Shown here: in pieces, positions 2,288-29,697 of the stretch
How positions within the stretch are numbered: the first letter of the stretch is position 1
Layout: every line of letters begins with the position of its first letter
Assembly: GCA_003452965.1 (NCBI GenBank)
Contig: DMMW01000010.1
Coordinates: forward strand, 1-34,525
Direction: 5' to 3'
Source of the DNA: Elusimicrobiota bacterium
Lineage (GTDB): Bacteria; Elusimicrobiota; UBA8919
DNA length: 34,525 nt
Program-made: the position numbers and the translations under genes
Notes under the pieces: model-generated
Databases searched by the model: none
Seen by the model: only the letters and a program-made list of their open reading frames with translations
What the model was told of the DNA's origin: nothing

Positions 2288-3175
2288 CTACCTCTTTACC
2301 TTTGTCGCTAATGTTTTATATAATTCTAACGCTTCTTGTGGTTTCATGTTTTTATGCACAACATTATTTACTGCTTTTATCATTGCAATAGGATTTTCGC
2401 TTTGGAATATGTTTCTGCCCATATCCACACCCGACGCACCCTGCTGTACGGCACTATATGCCATTGTAAGTGCATCCAACACTGGCAGTTTTTTACCGCC
2501 TGCCATAACAATGGGAACAGGACATGATGCCGTTATAGTTTCAAAATCTTCTGGAACATAATATGTTTTTACTACATGTGCACCCAATTCTGCACATATA
2601 CGGCATGCAAGCCGAAAATATTTAGCATCCCTTACCATATCCTTGCCTACTGCGGTTACTGCTAAAACAGGTATTCCATAACGCATTCCCATATCAACCA
2701 ACTTGGTCATATTATGTATTGACCGTGTCTCAAATTCACCTCCGATAAATACCTGTATTGCCATAGCTGATACATTCATTCTGATAGCATCTTCAATATC
2801 AACAGCTATTTCTTCATTTGAAAGTTCTTTTAAGATGCTTGGTCCACCGCTTGTTCTCATAACTATAGGTGTTGTAAACGACGGAGGTATAGTAGTTCTC
2901 AAGATTCCGCGGGTCAACATAATTGCATCTGCATATTTTACAAGCGGAACAATATTTAAATCAATCCGTTCCAATCCGGTTGTAGGTCCCTGAAAATAGC
3001 CATGATCTATTGCCAGCATGACCGTGCGTCCAGTATCGCTGTTGAATATTCTTGACAGGCGGTTTTTCATACCCCAATCTAAAGAATTAGACCCTTTAAG
3101 AAAAAAACATTCCGATTTCATTGGAATATCTTCATAATATTTTTTTTCTTCTTTATTTGCGTCTGTTTCCGGCAT
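2288..3175 (-). CDS. DhnA/FbaB/LsrF-family class I aldolase (TIM barrel)
   Basis: [12 protein letters not shown] and a GAHVVKTYY-type Schiff-base lysine region. The track ORF is trimmed to ATG at 3175 (MPETDANK...), which is preceded by GGAGG on the minus strand. Confidence 0.75.
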
Positions 3176-3259
3176 AACTCCTCCCTGGAAATTTATTAAT
3201 TTTAATAACCTCATTATATATAAAAAATATTTTATTTTCAATAAAAATTTAAAAACCTC

Positions 3260-3287
3260 TTGCAAATTATCAATGTTTAGATACAAT
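3260..3287 (+). promoter_or_regulatory. Putative sigma70-type promoter for the cupin/esterase genes (TTGCAA-16-TACAAT)
   Basis: TTGCAA at 3260-3265 and TACAAT at 3282-3287, about 27 nt upstream of the cupin ATG, within an AT-rich divergent intergenic region. Confidence 0.4.
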
Positions 3288-3313
3288 AATAGAAAATAAT
3301 ATTGGGAGATTTT

Positions 3314-3628
3314 ATGCCTATAATCTCGGGAAAGAATGCTGTGCAAAATACCGGTGAGTTCCCGGCATGGGGATTGGTTCACTTCAAAGCAGGACAGAAA
3401 AACATAACAGAATTACATTATCACGATAGTGACGAATTTTTCTTTATGATTGAAGGAAGATGTGTGATGAAATCGGAAGGGAAAATATATACTCTTGAAA
3501 AAGGCGATGTTTTTGTTACTCGCATGGGTGACGAACACGAACTTTTTGAGATATTGGAAGATACGACACTTTTTTGGCTATGCACAGAACTTCGCGGTCA
3601 AAAAAGGCAAGGACACCAGCACAGGTAA
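3314..3628 (+). CDS. Cupin-domain protein
   Basis: Cupin motif 1 is [14 protein letters not shown] and motif 2 region is [15 protein letters not shown]. The ATG at 3314 is preceded by GGGAG. Confidence 0.7.
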
Positions 3629-4843: not shown

Positions 4844-5617
4844 TTGGAGGATAACATAAATAAATATGAATTTGGGTTTTTAGGTGCAAAATTCCGGGTT
4901 CACAAAGACTGGAAACATTTTTTTGAAAATATATGCCTGGAATGTATAGAGAAGAATATTAGAAGAGATAAAATTACACCTTCTAAAGAAAATATTTTCA
5001 AAGTTTTTGAGAAACTCGGTCCTAAAGATATTAAAGTAGTAATAATCGGGCAGGACCCATATCCGCAACCAAATATTGCAACAGGCCGCGCATTTGAAGT
5101 TAAAGAATTGAATTCATGGCTTATTCCATTCAGGCAAGCAACATTAAGAAACATTTTGAAAATGTTGTATAACTGGCATGACAGTAAGAAGAATAAAAAA
5201 GCTTCAAGATTAGAAAAAATTGAAATTATAAAAAACGCAATAGAAAAGAAAGATTATAATATATTGCCGCCGGATAAGGTATTTGATTATTGGGAAAAAC
5301 AAAAAATATTTTTATTGAATTTTGCATTGACATACAGGATGGGTAATTGTGATAGTGGGGATTCTCATTTAATGTATTGGAAAGATTTTAATTATAAATT
5401 GGTAAGATGTTTATCAAAAATAAATAAAAATATAGTATGGTTGTTATTCGGAAAAGTTAACGAAGAAAATAACTGGATTATTAAACAAAATGCTTTTTAT
5501 ATTGCCCATCCGTCTGACAGGAGGGGAATAAACCCTAAGGATTTAGAAAAAATACGTCAATTTTTCGATATTTCGGTTAAGAAACATAAAATAGATTGGC
5601 TCGGAGGAAATTTATGA
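4844..5617 (+). CDS. Divergent uracil-DNA glycosylase superfamily protein (family-1-like scaffold with altered motifs)
   Basis: VVIIGQDPYPQPNIATGRAFEV compares with the UNG motif GQDPYHGPGQAHGL. FLLNFALT, VWLLFGK and AHPSDRRG compare with HPSPLS. The start is uncertain: TTG at 4844 with no in-frame ATG near the 5' end. The stop overlaps the next start (ATGA). Confidence 0.65.
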   Translation: MEDNINKYEFGFLGAKFRVHKDWKHFFENICLECIEKNIRRDKITPSKENIFKVFEKLGPKDIKVVIIGQDPYPQPNIATGRAFEVKELNSWLIPFRQATLRNILKMLYNWHDSKKNKKASRLEKIEIIKNAIEKKDYNILPPDKVFDYWEKQKIFLLNFALTYRMGNCDSGDSHLMYWKDFNYKLVRCLSKINKNIVWLLFGKVNEENNWIIKQNAFYIAHPSDRRGINPKDLEKIRQFFDISVKKHKIDWLGGNL

Positions 5618-6303
5618 AGATAGGTTTTATCGGGATAGAAATACCTGAGGGTAAGATAAAATACAAAGATGAAAAATTTGTCGCATTGGAAAATAAATGC
5701 GAACCTAAAAAAATAACTCCATATTTTGTAGAATTCATTATTAATGAATTCGTTCAGGTAAACGCTATTGTTATTTCAAAAGATAAAATACTTGATTTGC
5801 TTATTCCCGATATTGAAAAACTTGAAGCACGTGTGCAGAATACAAATGATAATTTTGAAAAAGAATTAATAAAAAAATGTATATCTTGTCTTGAAAATGA
5901 AATGCCTTTATGTGACATCGTTTTTAACGAACAGGAACAGAAACTTCTTCAGATGCTGTCACCGAATAGCATGAAACCGATTGTAATTATTGATGACAAA
6001 GTTGAAACAAACGAAATAATTGAAAAAGTATTAAAAAAATCACAAACTATATTTTTTTATACAGCGGGAAAAGATGAGGTTCATGCCTGGCCTGTAAAAG
6101 CAGGTTCCGATATTGTGACCTGTGCGGGCAGGATACATTCCGATTTAGCACGCGGATTTATAAAAGCGGATATTGTAAGTTTTGACAATTTTATGAAATG
6201 CCATAATTTTAATGATGCCAAGACAAAAGGATTGGTAAAGCTAGTAGATAGGGAATATATTATCCAAGAATCAGATATTATAGAGATACGCTTCAATGTA
6301 TAA
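5614..6303 (+). CDS. YchF-like protein retaining the C-terminal TGS/DUF933 domain but with a degenerate P-loop
   Basis: The C-terminus AWPVKAGSDIVTCAGRIHSDLARGFIKADIVSF...EYIIQESDIIEIRFNV matches the YchF C-terminal domain. The N-terminus MKIGFIGIEIPEGK replaces G(L/I)VGLPNVGKST. GGAGG RBS, and the ATG overlaps the upstream stop. Confidence 0.7.
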   Translation: MKIGFIGIEIPEGKIKYKDEKFVALENKCEPKKITPYFVEFIINEFVQVNAIVISKDKILDLLIPDIEKLEARVQNTNDNFEKELIKKCISCLENEMPLCDIVFNEQEQKLLQMLSPNSMKPIVIIDDKVETNEIIEKVLKKSQTIFFYTAGKDEVHAWPVKAGSDIVTCAGRIHSDLARGFIKADIVSFDNFMKCHNFNDAKTKGLVKLVDREYIIQESDIIEIRFNV

Positions 6304-6390
6304 ACAAAAAGCATAGAATTGAGAGATATTAAAATAAGAATCTTGGAATAGATTATTTCATCAAAATAAATAAAATGGTGTAATTTAAAA

Positions 6391-6630
6391 ATGAAGATTT
6401 TGTATCGTGATGTTAAAAAATATTGTGTGTTGACGAATAGAGAAGTGGAAGTCTTGCAGAAACTTATTCATAATACATTACCCAACGGGAATGAAGAAAT
6501 AATTCCTGTTCAGAAAATAAAATGTCCATATGCTATCAAGTGTTTCTATGAAGCGAGAGATTGCATTTACACTGAAAGCAATATCAATTCTAAAAATGAT
6601 CCCTTAATATTCAAAAATGAAGAGAAGTAA
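6391..6630 (+). CDS. Small hypothetical protein (79 aa, 4 Cys)
   Basis: Only ORF-level evidence. It overlaps the next gene by 14 nt. The short LTNREVEVLQKL stretch is reminiscent of LuxR-type HTH but too short to call. Confidence 0.3.
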   Translation: MKILYRDVKKYCVLTNREVEVLQKLIHNTLPNGNEEIIPVQKIKCPYAIKCFYEARDCIYTESNINSKNDPLIFKNEEK

Positions 6631-7714
6631 ATTGGAACTTAAATATAAACCGGATTTTGATTATGCAAAAGAAATGTGGAATCATTATTGGGCAAAAGAA
6701 GTATTGAAACGTCCGCTTGTGGTTGCCAATGTAGTTAAACAAGAAGGAAAAACTGTTGATAAAGATAAGTATAAGTATTATAATGCATGTACGAAGAATT
6801 ATAGAGAACAACTGACGATAATTGATGAATGGTTGGATAATACGTTATTTCTTGCTGAATCAATTCCGTGTTTTTCTCCAAGTCACGGTCCTGACCAGTT
6901 TGCTGCAATGCTCGGTGCTGATTTAAAATTTTCAGAAAGTAGCAAAACTACGAATTGGGTAGAACCTATAGTAGAAAATTGGGAAGAATTTATCCCGAAG
7001 ATTAAATTAAATGAAAATAATTCCGTCTGGCAAAGTCTTCTGGAATATTCAAAGATTCTTAAAGAACATTCAAAGGGGAAATATCTCGTTGGGATTTGCG
7101 ATTTTTATTCAAATGCCGATATGTTAAGTGCGATTCGGTCTCCGGCTAAATTGTGTATGGATTTTTATGATTATCCCGAATCAATAGCAAAGGCAATGTT
7201 ATCAGTCAGAAAATTATATAAAACGGTATATAATTCTTTATATGAAGCAGGCGGAATGAACAACGAAACCGGTACTATAGGGTGGATTCCTTTTTGGTGT
7301 AAAGATAAATATGCAACGATTCAATGTGATTTTATATGTATGGTATCACCGAAAATTGCAAATGAATATATAATTCCGGCATTAGAGGAAGAGGCGAATT
7401 TTCTTGACCATTGCATCTATCATCTTGACGGTCCCGGAGCATTACCACATCTTGATAATATTCTTGCAATAAAAAAAATTGATGCAATTCAGTGGATACC
7501 CGGTGATGGGCAGCCGCCGCAGTATGAATGGATTGATGTTCTGAAAAAATGCCAGAAAGCTGGTAAGGGACTTCAGATTTTGGATGTCACAAGCATAGAT
7601 ATTATAAAAAAATTCAGCAAAGAACTCAGTCCGGAAGGACTGGTATACTGCATAGACGTAAAGACTGAAAGAGAAGTTGATGAAATAACGACATGGCTTG
7701 AAAAAAACACTTGA
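6617..7714 (+). CDS. Hypothetical protein, possibly a uroporphyrinogen-decarboxylase (URO-D)-like TIM-barrel family member
   Basis: 365-aa ORF. The overall pattern (SHGPDQFAAMLGA..., CIYHLDGPGALPHLDNILAIKKIDAIQWIPG) recalls URO-D/MtaA-like proteins. The family call is from memory only. Confidence 0.4.
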   Translation: MKRSKLELKYKPDFDYAKEMWNHYWAKEVLKRPLVVANVVKQEGKTVDKDKYKYYNACTKNYREQLTIIDEWLDNTLFLAESIPCFSPSHGPDQFAAMLGADLKFSESSKTTNWVEPIVENWEEFIPKIKLNENNSVWQSLLEYSKILKEHSKGKYLVGICDFYSNADMLSAIRSPAKLCMDFYDYPESIAKAMLSVRKLYKTVYNSLYEAGGMNNETGTIGWIPFWCKDKYATIQCDFICMVSPKIANEYIIPALEEEANFLDHCIYHLDGPGALPHLDNILAIKKIDAIQWIPGDGQPPQYEWIDVLKKCQKAGKGLQILDVTSIDIIKKFSKELSPEGLVYCIDVKTEREVDEITTWLEKNT

Positions 7715-7926
7715 AGCTCCATCCCGATAACAATCGGGATTATAACATTTACCATAAGATTTTAAGGAGCGGAATCCGGCCCGTCAAGGCTTCGGCCTTG
7801 GCTGGCTGCAGGATGAAGCTCCATCCCGATAACAATCGGGATTATAACATTTACCATAAGATTTTAAGGAGCGGAATCCGGCCCGTCAAGGCTTCGGCCT
7901 TGGCTGGCTGCAGGATGAAGCTCCAT
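7712..7926 (+). repeat. Perfect 102-bp tandem duplication (7712-7813, 7814-7915) plus an 11-nt third start; each unit carries two hairpins
   Basis: The two units are identical by direct reading. Hairpin A is atcccgat-aaca-atcgggat (7721-7740 and 7823-7842). Hairpin B is caaggc-ttcg-gccttg (7785-7800 and 7887-7902), a C(UUCG)G tetraloop on the + strand. The array begins at the stop codon of the upstream gene. Confidence 0.95.
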
Positions 7927-8000
7927 TCTGTGTGGCGAGACAAGTTGCATTGGGAATGGGTAAGATGAAGTTTTACAATCATAAAAAAGGAATGAAAATT

Positions 8001-8954
8001 ATGGATTTTCAAAAACCAAAGGTTGCAATAATCGGTGCAGGAAGTGTCGGTAGTACATTTGCTTTCAGTTTGATGAATAGCGGCCTGTCAAGAGAAATTG
8101 TTCTAATTGATAGGAATGCATTACGTGCAAAAGGTGAATGCATGGATTTGAATCATGGGATAAGTTTCACTCAACCTGCAAAAATTTATTCAGCGGGATA
8201 TGAAGGTTGTGAAAATGCAGATGTTATAGTTATAACGGCAGGAGCTAAACAAATTCCGGGTCAGTCAAGAATAGATTTGGTGCAACAAAATACCGAAATA
8301 TTCAAGGATATAATTCCTAAAATAATAAAATATGCCAAAGATGCGGTAATTTTAGTTGTTTCAAATCCGGTAGATATATTAACATATGTAACTTTGAAAA
8401 TTTCCGGATTTCCTTCAAATAGAGTAATAGGCTCCGGGACTGTCTTGGATACAGCAAGATTCAAATATTTAATTAGTGAACATTGCGGGATAGATTCAAG
8501 AAATATTCATGCTTATGTTATTGGTGAACATGGAGACACAGAACTTCCCGTGTTAAGCAATGCAAACATTGGCGGAATGGTATTGTCAAAATATTGTGCA
8601 ATATGTTCCAGACATTGCGACAATAGTAGGAGCGAATTGGAAAAGATATTCAGTGAGGTTAAAAATGCTGCTTACAAAATAATTGAAGCAAAAGGTGCGA
8701 CCTATTACGCTGTTGCCTTGGCATTAGTCAAGATAACGGGCTCAATATTAAGAAATGAGAATTCTATTTTACCGGTTTCAACTCTAATTAATGATTATTA
8801 CAACATCTCTAATATATGTCTCAGTATTCCGGCTATAGTTAATAAAAACGGTGTTGAAAAATTTTTAAGAATAGAATTATCAGAACAGGAACAAACACAG
8901 CTTAAAAGTTCTGCAGATTCATTAAAAGAAATATTAGAAAAAATTAAGTTCTAA
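8001..8954 (+). CDS. ldh: L-lactate dehydrogenase
   Basis: KVAIIGAGSVGS NAD-binding fold, VITAGAKQ..GQSRIDL, SNPVDIL and the IGEHGD catalytic His region. The start is chosen at 8001 (AGGA 9 nt upstream). An alternative ATG lies at 7992. Confidence 0.9.
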   Translation: MDFQKPKVAIIGAGSVGSTFAFSLMNSGLSREIVLIDRNALRAKGECMDLNHGISFTQPAKIYSAGYEGCENADVIVITAGAKQIPGQSRIDLVQQNTEIFKDIIPKIIKYAKDAVILVVSNPVDILTYVTLKISGFPSNRVIGSGTVLDTARFKYLISEHCGIDSRNIHAYVIGEHGDTELPVLSNANIGGMVLSKYCAICSRHCDNSRSELEKIFSEVKNAAYKIIEAKGATYYAVALALVKITGSILRNENSILPVSTLINDYYNISNICLSIPAIVNKNGVEKFLRIELSEQEQTQLKSSADSLKEILEKIKF

Positions 8955-27960: not shown

Positions 27961-29436
27961 ATGAAAAAGTATAAAATATTCGTGAGTGGTGTGCAGAAAG
28001 AACTCAAAGCAGAACGCCGGGCAGTGAAAGATTCGATTCTCGGTGATGTCTTGCTCTCCGAGTATTTTGACGTTTTCTTGTTTGAAGATTCACCGGCTAA
28101 AAGCCATTCAGCAGAAAAGGCATATCTTGAAGAAGTCCGTAAAGGCAATATCTATATCAGCATTCTTGGCGATAAATACGGCAGCACGGGCAAGAATAAA
28201 ATTTCTCCTACCGAAGCAGAATTTCGGGAAGCAAAAACCAAGCATAAAGACATTTTAATTTATATAAAAGGTGAAAACTCCGTTGATAAAAACCGTGAAG
28301 CAGGCGTACAGAAACTTATTAAGGAGATTAAAGATTCCAAGGTGGGTTATTGTTATCGCAGATTTAATTCCATCAGCGAATTAACCAACCTTGTTTATGA
28401 AAGTTTGATTGTCTTTTTAAAAGAGAAAGGAGAAGTCGGCAGAGCCGTATTTGACCAGCGGATATGCGACAGTGCGACTTTCTCCGATATTGACGATGAA
28501 AAAGTTAAGTGGTTTTTAAAAACAGCACGAGCCAAACGGAATTTTCCACTTGCTCTTGATTCTTCAACACAAGATGTTTTTACTCATCTAAAACTTTTGA
28601 AAGACGGCAAATTGACCAACGCCGCAGTTTTATTATTCGGCAAAGAACCGAGAAAGTTTTTTGACCAGGCAAAAATCAAATGTATTCATCTGCCAAGTAC
28701 CGAAGTAGAGAAACCGTTCACATCATATCAAATTTACGAAGGGAATTTATTTGAGCAGGTGGACAAGGCAGTTAGTTTTGTATTTGATATACTCAAATTC
28801 CCTGTTATTCAGCAGGAACATACTGTCCAGGTATCTCGGCCCCGTGAAATTCCAGTATTCGTGGTTCAGGAAGCCATCGTCAACGCAGTTGCTCACCGCG
28901 ACTATAACACGACGTCCTCTGTTCAGGTAATGGTATTTCTTGACCGAGTGGAAATATGGAATTCTGGGACTTTACCAGCCCACTTAAAAATAGAAGACCT
29001 CAAAAAACCACACGCATCTCACCCGACAAATACTTTATTAGCCACAGTAATGTTTTTTGCCGATTACATTCAACAAGCAGGTTCGGGAACATTGGAGATG
29101 CTCAAACAGTGTAAGGCAAAGGGACTTCCCGAGCCGGACTTCGTATCAGTGCGGAATCTTGAATTCAAAACAATATTAGCCAGAGATATTTTTACGGAAG
29201 AGGTCTTAAATAAACTGGGATTGAATGAACGCCAGTTAAAAGCAGTAAAATATGTAAAAGAAAAAGGCAGAATAACGAATAAAGAATATCAGTTAAATTT
29301 TGGTGTTAAGAAAAGACAAGCAACAGATGATTTAAAAGATTTAGAAAATAAAGAGGTCTTAATTAAGATTGGATCTACTGGAAGGGGAACATATTACAAG
29401 GTTAATGGGGCGATAATGGGGCGAAAGGGGCAATAA
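27961..29436 (+). CDS. Fusion protein: N-terminal DUF4062-like domain + COG2865-type body (HATPase_c_4-like) + C-terminal wHTH
   Basis: The N-terminus KIFVSGVQKELKAERRAVKDSI...GNIYISILGDKYGS matches my recollection of the DUF4062 pattern. The middle and C-terminal parts (LTNAAVLLFGKEP, VQEAIVNAVAHRDY, VEIWNSGTLP, AGSGTLEMLKQCKAKGLPEPDF) are typical of RecG-like/COG2865 putative regulators. Confidence 0.75.
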   Translation: MKKYKIFVSGVQKELKAERRAVKDSILGDVLLSEYFDVFLFEDSPAKSHSAEKAYLEEVRKGNIYISILGDKYGSTGKNKISPTEAEFREAKTKHKDILIYIKGENSVDKNREAGVQKLIKEIKDSKVGYCYRRFNSISELTNLVYESLIVFLKEKGEVGRAVFDQRICDSATFSDIDDEKVKWFLKTARAKRNFPLALDSSTQDVFTHLKLLKDGKLTNAAVLLFGKEPRKFFDQAKIKCIHLPSTEVEKPFTSYQIYEGNLFEQVDKAVSFVFDILKFPVIQQEHTVQVSRPREIPVFVVQEAIVNAVAHRDYNTTSSVQVMVFLDRVEIWNSGTLPAHLKIEDLKKPHASHPTNTLLATVMFFADYIQQAGSGTLEMLKQCKAKGLPEPDFVSVRNLEFKTILARDIFTEEVLNKLGLNERQLKAVKYVKEKGRITNKEYQLNFGVKKRQATDDLKDLENKEVLIKIGSTGRGTYYKVNGAIMGRKGQ

Positions 29437-29452
29437 AGGGGCGATAATGGGG
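29407..29452 (+). repeat. Five phased GGGG runs (~11-nt period; GGGGCGATAAT-type units) overlapping the gene's stop; canonical G-quadruplex motif
   Basis: GGGG at 29407, 29418, 29427, 29438 and 29449, with loops of 5-7 nt. The unit ggggcgataat occurs exactly twice. Confidence 0.9.
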
Positions 29453-29697
29453 CAGAGCATTTAAAAAGACAGTATGTTTTTCCGATATAAAAACAGGAAA
29501 GCGCATTGGTCTCGATAAAGGCGGCCACTGGATTATCCTTCGTAGCAATAATAAAGTGGGAAAAGTTGTAGAGAAATAAAAAGAAAAATGTAAAGCGTCC
29601 ACATTTTCCTAATACACAATATGACACACAGATAAAGAACCTAAAATTAGGATTATCATTTCAAAACATAGGTCCCAAAATGACATTTATACAAGAG

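Follow-up and report, generated by a model that had tools for sequence, protein, structure and literature searches.

Overlapping genes for a divergent family-1-type uracil-DNA glycosylase and a reduced YchF derivative in one Elusimicrobia lineage

Family-1 uracil-DNA glycosylases (UDGs), known as Ung or UNG, and the YchF/OLA1 proteins, P-loop ATPases of the Obg family, are the described proteins closest to the products of two overlapping open reading frames (ORFs) on contig DMMW01000010.1 of an Elusimicrobiota bacterium (UBA8919; assembly GCA_003452965.1). We analysed the 34,525 nt of this contig on the forward strand, referred to here as the window. ORF A (4844 to 5617, + strand; 257 aa, TTG start) encodes a family-1-type, UNG-like protein of a clade marked by the motifs GQDPYPQ and ATGRAFEV, and ORF B (5614 to 6303, + strand; 229 aa, ATG start) encodes a "mini-YchF", in which a reduced remnant of the G domain is combined with a shortened helical hairpin and a TGS/DUF933 domain. 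These data suggest that the pair is probably an operon private to one lineage and made up of two independent genes, one for a divergent and probably active UDG and one for a mini-YchF that is dead as a nucleoside triphosphatase (NTPase).

ORF A shares its fold with family-1 enzymes such as those of Escherichia coli, human and Coxiella (3TR7), and has the following residues in common with them: the catalytic Asp, the Tyr gate, the stacking Phe, the Asn of the LLLN strand and the His of HP(S). It differs from them in that GQDPYH, AHGLAFSV, the HPSPLS Leu wedge and the Gly-Ser and Pro-rich loops are not kept, and in its long insertion, a predicted extra N-terminal β-hairpin and equivalog scores below cutoff. 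One of these departures has a precedent in viruses. The mimivirus UNG (PDB 5X55/6LYD), which has been used in activity assays, carries GQDPYP as its water-activating loop (PMC5538708), and ORF A has this loop in common with it and with UNG-like proteins of phages and giant viruses, at ~27–35% identity. The viral UNG-like proteins examined otherwise read ADGxAFSC and HPASAAY and have no long insertion, whereas ORF A reads ATGRAFEV and HPxxxx. Among viral contigs in IMG/VR, GQDPYP(Q) was found in 59/80 UNG-like genes (L170–L248). Many of these viral genes encode proteins of 238–240 aa with the motifs ADGxAFSC, QGVLLLNTALT and SHPASAAY, and, judged by these motifs, phages seem to have a sizeable clade of family-1-like UDGs that are non-canonical.

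The UDG superfamily also includes the antiviral glycosylases Brig1 and Brig2. The best structural match of Brig1 is a family-4 UDG, its pocket is enlarged, and it lies close to further systems with a putative role in defence (PMC11078745). Of Brig2-like proteins, an average of 41% are encoded ≤20 kb from a mobile element or in the vicinity of known defence systems (bioRxiv 10.1101/2025.10.29.685425). ORF A has the superfamily α/β fold in common with both, all being candidates for monofunctional glycosylases. It is set apart by its canonical small-pocket residues and metabolic neighbours, the comparison with Brig2 being one of published descriptions.

ORF B carries a TGS/DUF933 domain clearly homologous to that of YchF/OLA1 (1JAL, 2DBY, 2OHF, 8KIE), and its structural model suggests that the three-part arrangement of these proteins is kept, with TM-scores normalised to the query (TMq) of up to 0.82. 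Strands β1, β3, β4 and β5, the switch-I hairpin and the helical hairpin are still recognisable. However, the G1 (GxxxxGKS/T), G3 (DxxG) and G4 motifs of YchF/OLA1 are all missing from ORF B, the YchF-type G4 being (N/T)(M/L/V)xE (PMC11814078).

The overlap and its distribution

The junction between the two genes is an ATGA overlap (5614 to 5617, + strand), in which the TGA stop of ORF A occupies 5615–5617 and the ATG of ORF B occupies 5614–5616, just as a first-pass annotation of this DNA had described. A GGAGGA Shine-Dalgarno sequence for ORF B lies within the 3′ end of ORF A (5603 to 5608, + strand), 6 nt 5′ of the ORF B start. From the 4-bp overlap and this internal Shine-Dalgarno sequence, we infer that the two genes would be co-transcribed and their translation coupled. 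A scan for promoters and terminators around the pair gave nothing better than shuffled sequences.

The association of ORF A with ORF B was judged by gene adjacency, in 80 loci of the UDG clade with ±6 kb of flank and in 80 metagenome loci encoding mini-YchF, 48 of which were usable (≥800 bp upstream). A DUF933 gene occurs near a UDG-clade gene at 1/80 loci (L009), and a UDG lies upstream of mini-YchF at 1/48 usable loci (L089). Both hits are the contig of a single congener (RIFOXYD2_FULL_34_15-like), with 77% identity to ORF A and 84% to ORF B. Its pair is likewise overlapped, by GTGA, and the Shine-Dalgarno sequence is kept in the junction, GGAGGAATCTTGTGA. Elsewhere the pairing is absent, as inspection of single loci illustrates. 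No UDG adjoins the 72%-identical mini-YchF gene of another member of Elusimicrobia (L001), whose neighbours are an aminotransferase and a thioesterase, nor the mini-YchF gene of a locus from the Planctomycetes–Verrucomicrobia–Chlamydiae (PVC) group (L003), which is flanked by LptD and PilZ. Conversely, two UDG-clade members (P0003 and P0057; loci L006 and L008) have unrelated genes and no YchF as neighbours.

Clustering of neighbouring genes agrees with these individual cases. The recurrent neighbours of the UDG clade (cytidylate-kinase-like, Sua5/YrdC, DapD, PrmC and RecX) are housekeeping genes inherited at order level, and clustering revealed no recurrent neighbour of mini-YchF, the largest real clusters covering 7/82 loci. 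The adjacency is thus private to one lineage, and therefore nothing indicates a joint function of ORF A and ORF B. The first-pass annotation had raised a functional link between a UDG-like and a YchF-like protein, and had itself named a lack of synteny in other genomes as evidence against one; the two genes are not syntenic beyond one congener, and the link is unsupported on that ground. Literature searches likewise returned no link between UDG and YchF, and no description of either subfamily.

The UDG clade of ORF A

ORF A is a divergent but recognisable member of its family. It matches the Pfam UDG profile (PF03167) with 31.2 bits (cutoff 24.3) and the Ung equivalog TIGR00628 with 97.2 bits, far under the cutoff of 185.75; NF0035xx profiles are likewise matched below cutoff. 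A profile of the ORF A family matches solved UNGs at E~1e-30. Its AlphaFold2 (AF2) model, which includes the extra N-terminal β-hairpin, has a predicted local distance difference test score (pLDDT) of 89, and when it was searched against the PDB with Foldseek the top 50 matches were all family-1 UNGs (TMq ~0.65; target-normalised TM-score, TMt, ~0.72).

Only two close homologues were found (100% and 77% identity), followed by hundreds at 31–42% with lengths of 235–258 aa, spread over Marinilabiliales/Prolixibacteraceae, Clostridia, Cloacimonadota, Desulfobacterales, Ignavibacteria, Crenothrix and other taxa. A motif scan of the GTDB species-representative genomes identified 340 loci encoding relatives of ORF A. 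Among the best 120 homologues, GQDPYPQ is present in 112 and G[EMR]DPYPQ in six more.

To describe the clade we used an alignment of 40 sequences, whose members stand at 32–39% identity (76% for the congener). The residues D71, P72, Y73, P74, Q75, F84, N159 and H222 are invariant. Five of them correspond to functional residues of E. coli Ung: D71 to the catalytic Asp64, Y73 to the Tyr66 gate, F84 to the stacking Phe77, N159 to Asn123 and H222 to His187. In the E. coli alignment, the water-activating loop GQDPYPQ (aa 69–75; 5048 to 5068, + strand) retains Asp71 and Tyr73 and has Pro74 in place of His; with one further residue the sequence reads GQDPYPQP (aa 69–76; 5048–5071, + strand). Phe84 stands in GRAFEV, and the uracil-recognition Asn159 (5318 to 5320, + strand; N123 of LLLN in E. 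coli) stands in the pocket strand FLLN. Finally, HPSDRRG (aa 222–228; 5507 to 5527, + strand) supplies His222 and places Arg226 at the Leu-intercalation position.

The regions around this core are remodelled. Throughout the clade the His after GQDPY is Pro, ATGRAFEV stands where canonical UNG has AHGLAFSV, and an insertion of ~25–35 aa separates the SLxNI helix from the W-x-x-QGVLLLN strand. The clade also has no Pro-rich loop (there is no proline run, and the Ser of SL(R/K)NI, S100 in ORF A, alone is retained) and no Gly-Ser loop, with GK/GN in place of GS. HPSPLS is replaced by a loop that varies within the clade (HPMMCY, HPQLNN, HPRLNS) and reads HPSDRRG in ORF A. Judged from the alignments, the His-to-Pro change and the loop changes are traits of a large bacterial UNG-like clade and not private degeneration. 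With GQDPYP found in the clade, in its viral relatives and in the mimivirus UNG, the His-to-Pro change need not mean that catalysis has been lost.

The first-pass annotation had correctly placed ORF A on a UNG scaffold with the catalytic Asp and His, and had also recognised its His-to-Pro change, non-canonical Leu loop and insertions, all of which stand in the alignment to E. coli Ung. It read these oddities as signs of an altered substrate or a binding-only role. The alignments do not support this reading, as the odd features are clade-wide and the catalytic and uracil-pocket residues are invariant. This invariance argues, on sequence grounds, for enzymatic activity of the clade. The Tyr gate of UNGs is a steric gate at C5 that excludes thymine, and its retention argues against 5-substituted pyrimidines as substrates of the ORF A clade. 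Most likely, ORF A would flip out and excise uracil or a very uracil-like base, with the Asp activating water, the Tyr acting as the C5 gate, the Phe stacking, the Asn reading O4/N3 and the His stabilising O2. The loops that grip DNA would be remodelled, the canonical Leu wedge having gone, and Arg226/Arg227 are candidate wedges in its place.

The mini-YchF family of ORF B

The first-pass annotation had assigned the C-terminal part of ORF B to the YchF TGS/DUF933 domain. Profile searches bear this out: aa 146–228 (6049 to 6297, + strand) match the Pfam profile YchF-GTPase_C (PF06071; DUF933, TGS-like) with 98.6 bits, and residues 281–363 of Haemophilus influenzae YchF (1JAL) align to ORF B at E=4e-15. 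Against the YchF equivalog TIGR00092 (cutoff 279.2) ORF B scores 101.6 bits, over profile positions 271–368 only, the last 98. The protein is ~134 aa shorter than YchFs of solved structure (363–368 aa), close to the ~130 aa estimated earlier. In spite of this, its AF2 model (pLDDT 95.2) was superposed by Foldseek on whole YchF/OLA1 structures with TMq values of 0.7–0.82.

This reduced architecture defines a family. The best 120 matches to ORF B are nearly all exactly 229 aa long, and members from Elusimicrobia, SAR324, Omnitrophica, Desulfobaccales/Thermodesulfobacteriota, Nitrospirota and the PVC group, named "DUF933 domain-containing protein" by NCBI, are ~55–72% identical across these phyla. 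Their alignment has a mean column identity of 70% and almost no indels. When the N-terminal 145 aa of ORF B were searched with HMMER against 1.84 billion representatives, the 96 proteins retrieved were all of the mini type; those of full length have 223–234 aa, the rest are fragments, and no canonical YchF is among them.

A deletion map was drawn from two mutually consistent alignments, one to 1JAL by HMMER and one by MAFFT that includes six full-length YchFs. Strand β1 (MKIGF) is retained, and the ~28 aa in which the P-loop and helix 1 reside are lost. The switch-I hairpin, the next helix and β3 follow (EGKxKYxD...PKK...EFI). The G3/switch-II segment is lost, the DxxG region being deleted or replaced (FI-INEFV), and β4 is retained. 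Strand β5 is also retained, with IIDD at the position of the YchF-type G4, and ~56 aa of the G domain before TGS are missing. In the AF2 model the helical hairpin would comprise residues 56–76 and 80–94, its tip ~12 aa shorter than in YchF. No Walker A motif (GxxxxGK[ST]) occurs in ORF B or in any mini-type homologue scanned, so the loss of the P-loop proposed in the first-pass annotation stands. Its idea that the N-terminal sequence had replaced the P-loop does not, since the P-loop lies in the ~28 aa deleted. PEGK was considered as a degenerate Walker A and rejected because the alignment places the segment EIPEGKIKYKD at the switch-I hairpin. A hidden P-loop upstream or in another frame was likewise rejected: ORF B can be extended upstream by no more than 6 codons, and its length of 229 aa is conserved across the family.

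In addition to these losses, one surface of YchF has changed. E. coli YchF attaches to the 50S subunit chiefly by way of the Lys-rich tip of its helical domain, where K149/K152/K156/K159 contact H62 of the 23S rRNA (PMC11814078). The tip of mini-YchF is short and not Lys-rich, and this lysine cluster is missing; going by sequence, the same ribosome docking as in E. coli cannot be assumed. The best-conserved surface of mini-YchF is its TGS domain. ORF B would thus be a nucleotide-independent, TGS-mediated binding protein and not an NTPase, and its partner is presumably the ribosome or RNA.

The family also has (near-)invariant cysteines at C89, C100 (in PLCD) and C170 (in TCAG), and an invariant motif E12-G13-K14-x-K16-x-x-D19. 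NCBIfam (TIGR00092) lists canonical YchF as "redox-regulated ATPase YchF", and the cysteines of mini-YchF might have a redox or metal role.

One metagenomic locus (L137, Ga0364919_10657) bears on the relationship of mini-YchF to YchF itself. Here a mini-YchF gene (4992–5693) lies directly 5′ of a gene for a canonical, P-loop-containing YchF of 366–372 aa (5712–6830) in the order NrdR–PurC–mini-YchF–YchF–CrcB. At least one organism therefore has both forms, and the term "paralogue", used for ORF B from the outset, is correct. The arrangement suggests either that it arose by tandem duplication or that the two forms of YchF are functionally paired.

Rival readings, genomic setting and significance

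Two independent genes that share an operon by chance in one Elusimicrobia lineage, neither of them with hallmarks of defence or of a mobile element, are the best reading of these data. Several observations weigh against it. Literature searches found no enzyme assay of a protein from the GQDPYPQ/ATGRAFEV clade, and the non-canonical Leu, Gly-Ser and Pro-rich loops could confer a different preference for single- or double-stranded DNA or for sequence context. Moreover, the pair is overlapped in two genomes in which the flanking genes differ on both sides. The persistence of the overlap is compatible with selection for a unit, but at 77–84% identity the two genomes are too close to tell. The same persistence of the overlap and internal Shine-Dalgarno sequence would favour a lineage-specific module in which the UDG-like enzyme would cooperate with mini-YchF, for instance with the TGS/helical protein targeting or regulating the glycosylase on a nucleic acid, and PMC11814078 cites a reported DNA-binding potential of the YchF cleft that lies between the helical domain and the TGS domain. 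We consider such a module unlikely, because the pairing is missing at 79/80 UDG-clade loci and 47/48 usable mini-YchF loci, as well as at that of the 72%-identical Elusimicrobia mini-YchF, and the sole other case is the 77–84% identical congener. Furthermore, mini-YchF is conserved at 55–70% identity in phyla without the pairing, and its function is therefore older than, and independent of, the pairing. That ORF A and the NTPase-dead mini-YchF were recruited as a two-component unit, with mini-YchF delivering the glycosylase to a nucleic-acid substrate or gating its access, is very unlikely. A weaker but likelier novelty is mini-YchF itself, possibly a widespread pseudo-GTPase paralogue, as yet undescribed, working on the partner of YchF without nucleotide control.

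Two further alternatives concern ORF A on its own. The co-option of UDG-superfamily enzymes for defence, as in Brig1 and Brig2, together with the remodelled DNA-contact loops, raises an antiviral role, in which ORF A would excise modified phage pyrimidines without ORF B; the first-pass annotation had entertained a defence function in similar terms. PADLOC returned no match for either ORF, which is weak evidence, as its model library (v2, 2023) predates Brig1 and Brig2. Matches in PHROGs were to families of "unknown function" only, phrog_12143 in the case of ORF A. Brig1 resembles family-4 UDGs most closely, has a pocket enlarged near C5 and lies near putative defence systems, whereas ORF A is family-1-like and keeps the Tyr73 gate, Phe84, Asn159 and His222 without variation. 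The neighbours in the window and across the clade are metabolic or housekeeping genes, and the GC content at third codon positions (GC3) is not atypical. An antiviral ORF A is accordingly most doubtful, and the evidence points to the housekeeping role that the first-pass annotation had also allowed. Least probable of all is that ORF A is a catalytically dead pseudo-glycosylase that binds DNA or uracil. A score of only 97 bits against the Ung equivalog cutoff and the missing Leu wedge and Gly-Ser loop would fit this idea, but Asp71, His222, Asn159, Phe84 and Tyr73 are 100% conserved over 40 members, the pattern of a retained active site.

Genes of sugar metabolism and central metabolism, together with one for a histidine kinase, form the genomic setting of the pair: its neighbours in the window encode a short-chain dehydrogenase/reductase, a class II aldolase, DeoC, a cupin, an acetyl-xylan esterase, a lactate/malate dehydrogenase (LDH/MDH), an OtsA-type GT20 glycosyltransferase and the kinase. 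Recent horizontal transfer of the pair was rejected because both ORFs agree with neighbouring genes in GC and GC3. A protein of "Elusimicrobia bacterium RIFOXYC2_FULL_34_12" shows 100% identity to ORF B. The motifs quoted in the first-pass annotation (GQDPYPQP; AHPSDRRG, aa 221–228; MKIGFIGIEIPEGK; and IEIRFNV) are all found in the window, in which no RNA elements were detected with Rfam. Directly 3′ of the pair are two ORFs without a Pfam match (6391–6630, 79 aa; 6617–7714, 365 aa), which are not conserved 3′ of the pair in the congener.

Tandem repeats also occur in the window. A perfect 102-bp tandem duplication (7712–7926; 2.1 copies, 100% identical) sits between the 365-aa ORF and the LDH/MDH-like gene (7932–8954); it has no other copy in the window and no Rfam match, and may either have arisen recently or be an artefact of assembly. 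An intergenic heptamer microsatellite, (CAGGATA) x 21.4 with 91% matches (2094–2243), separates the class II aldolase gene (1433–2089, − strand) from the DeoC-family aldolase gene (2288–3382, − strand). Lastly, a short imperfect repeat, TAATGGGGCGA x 4.8 (29403–29454), overlaps the 3′ end of an ORF at 27961–29436.

Overall, the proposed UDG–YchF link is unsupported and the gene pair as such matters little; the residual value of the locus, a modest lead, lies in two uncharacterised subfamilies. The GQDPYPQ/ATGRAFEV clade is large and biochemically uncharacterised, and joins an intact active site to remodelled DNA-contact loops; its DNA-substrate preference, or its sensitivity to inhibitors of the Ugi/p56 type, could differ from that of canonical Ung. 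Foremost of the two is mini-YchF. This YchF derivative, strongly conserved across phyla and devoid of every G motif, amounts to a natural separation-of-function variant and could help to show which roles of the helical and TGS domains of YchF/OLA1 are independent of ATP hydrolysis.

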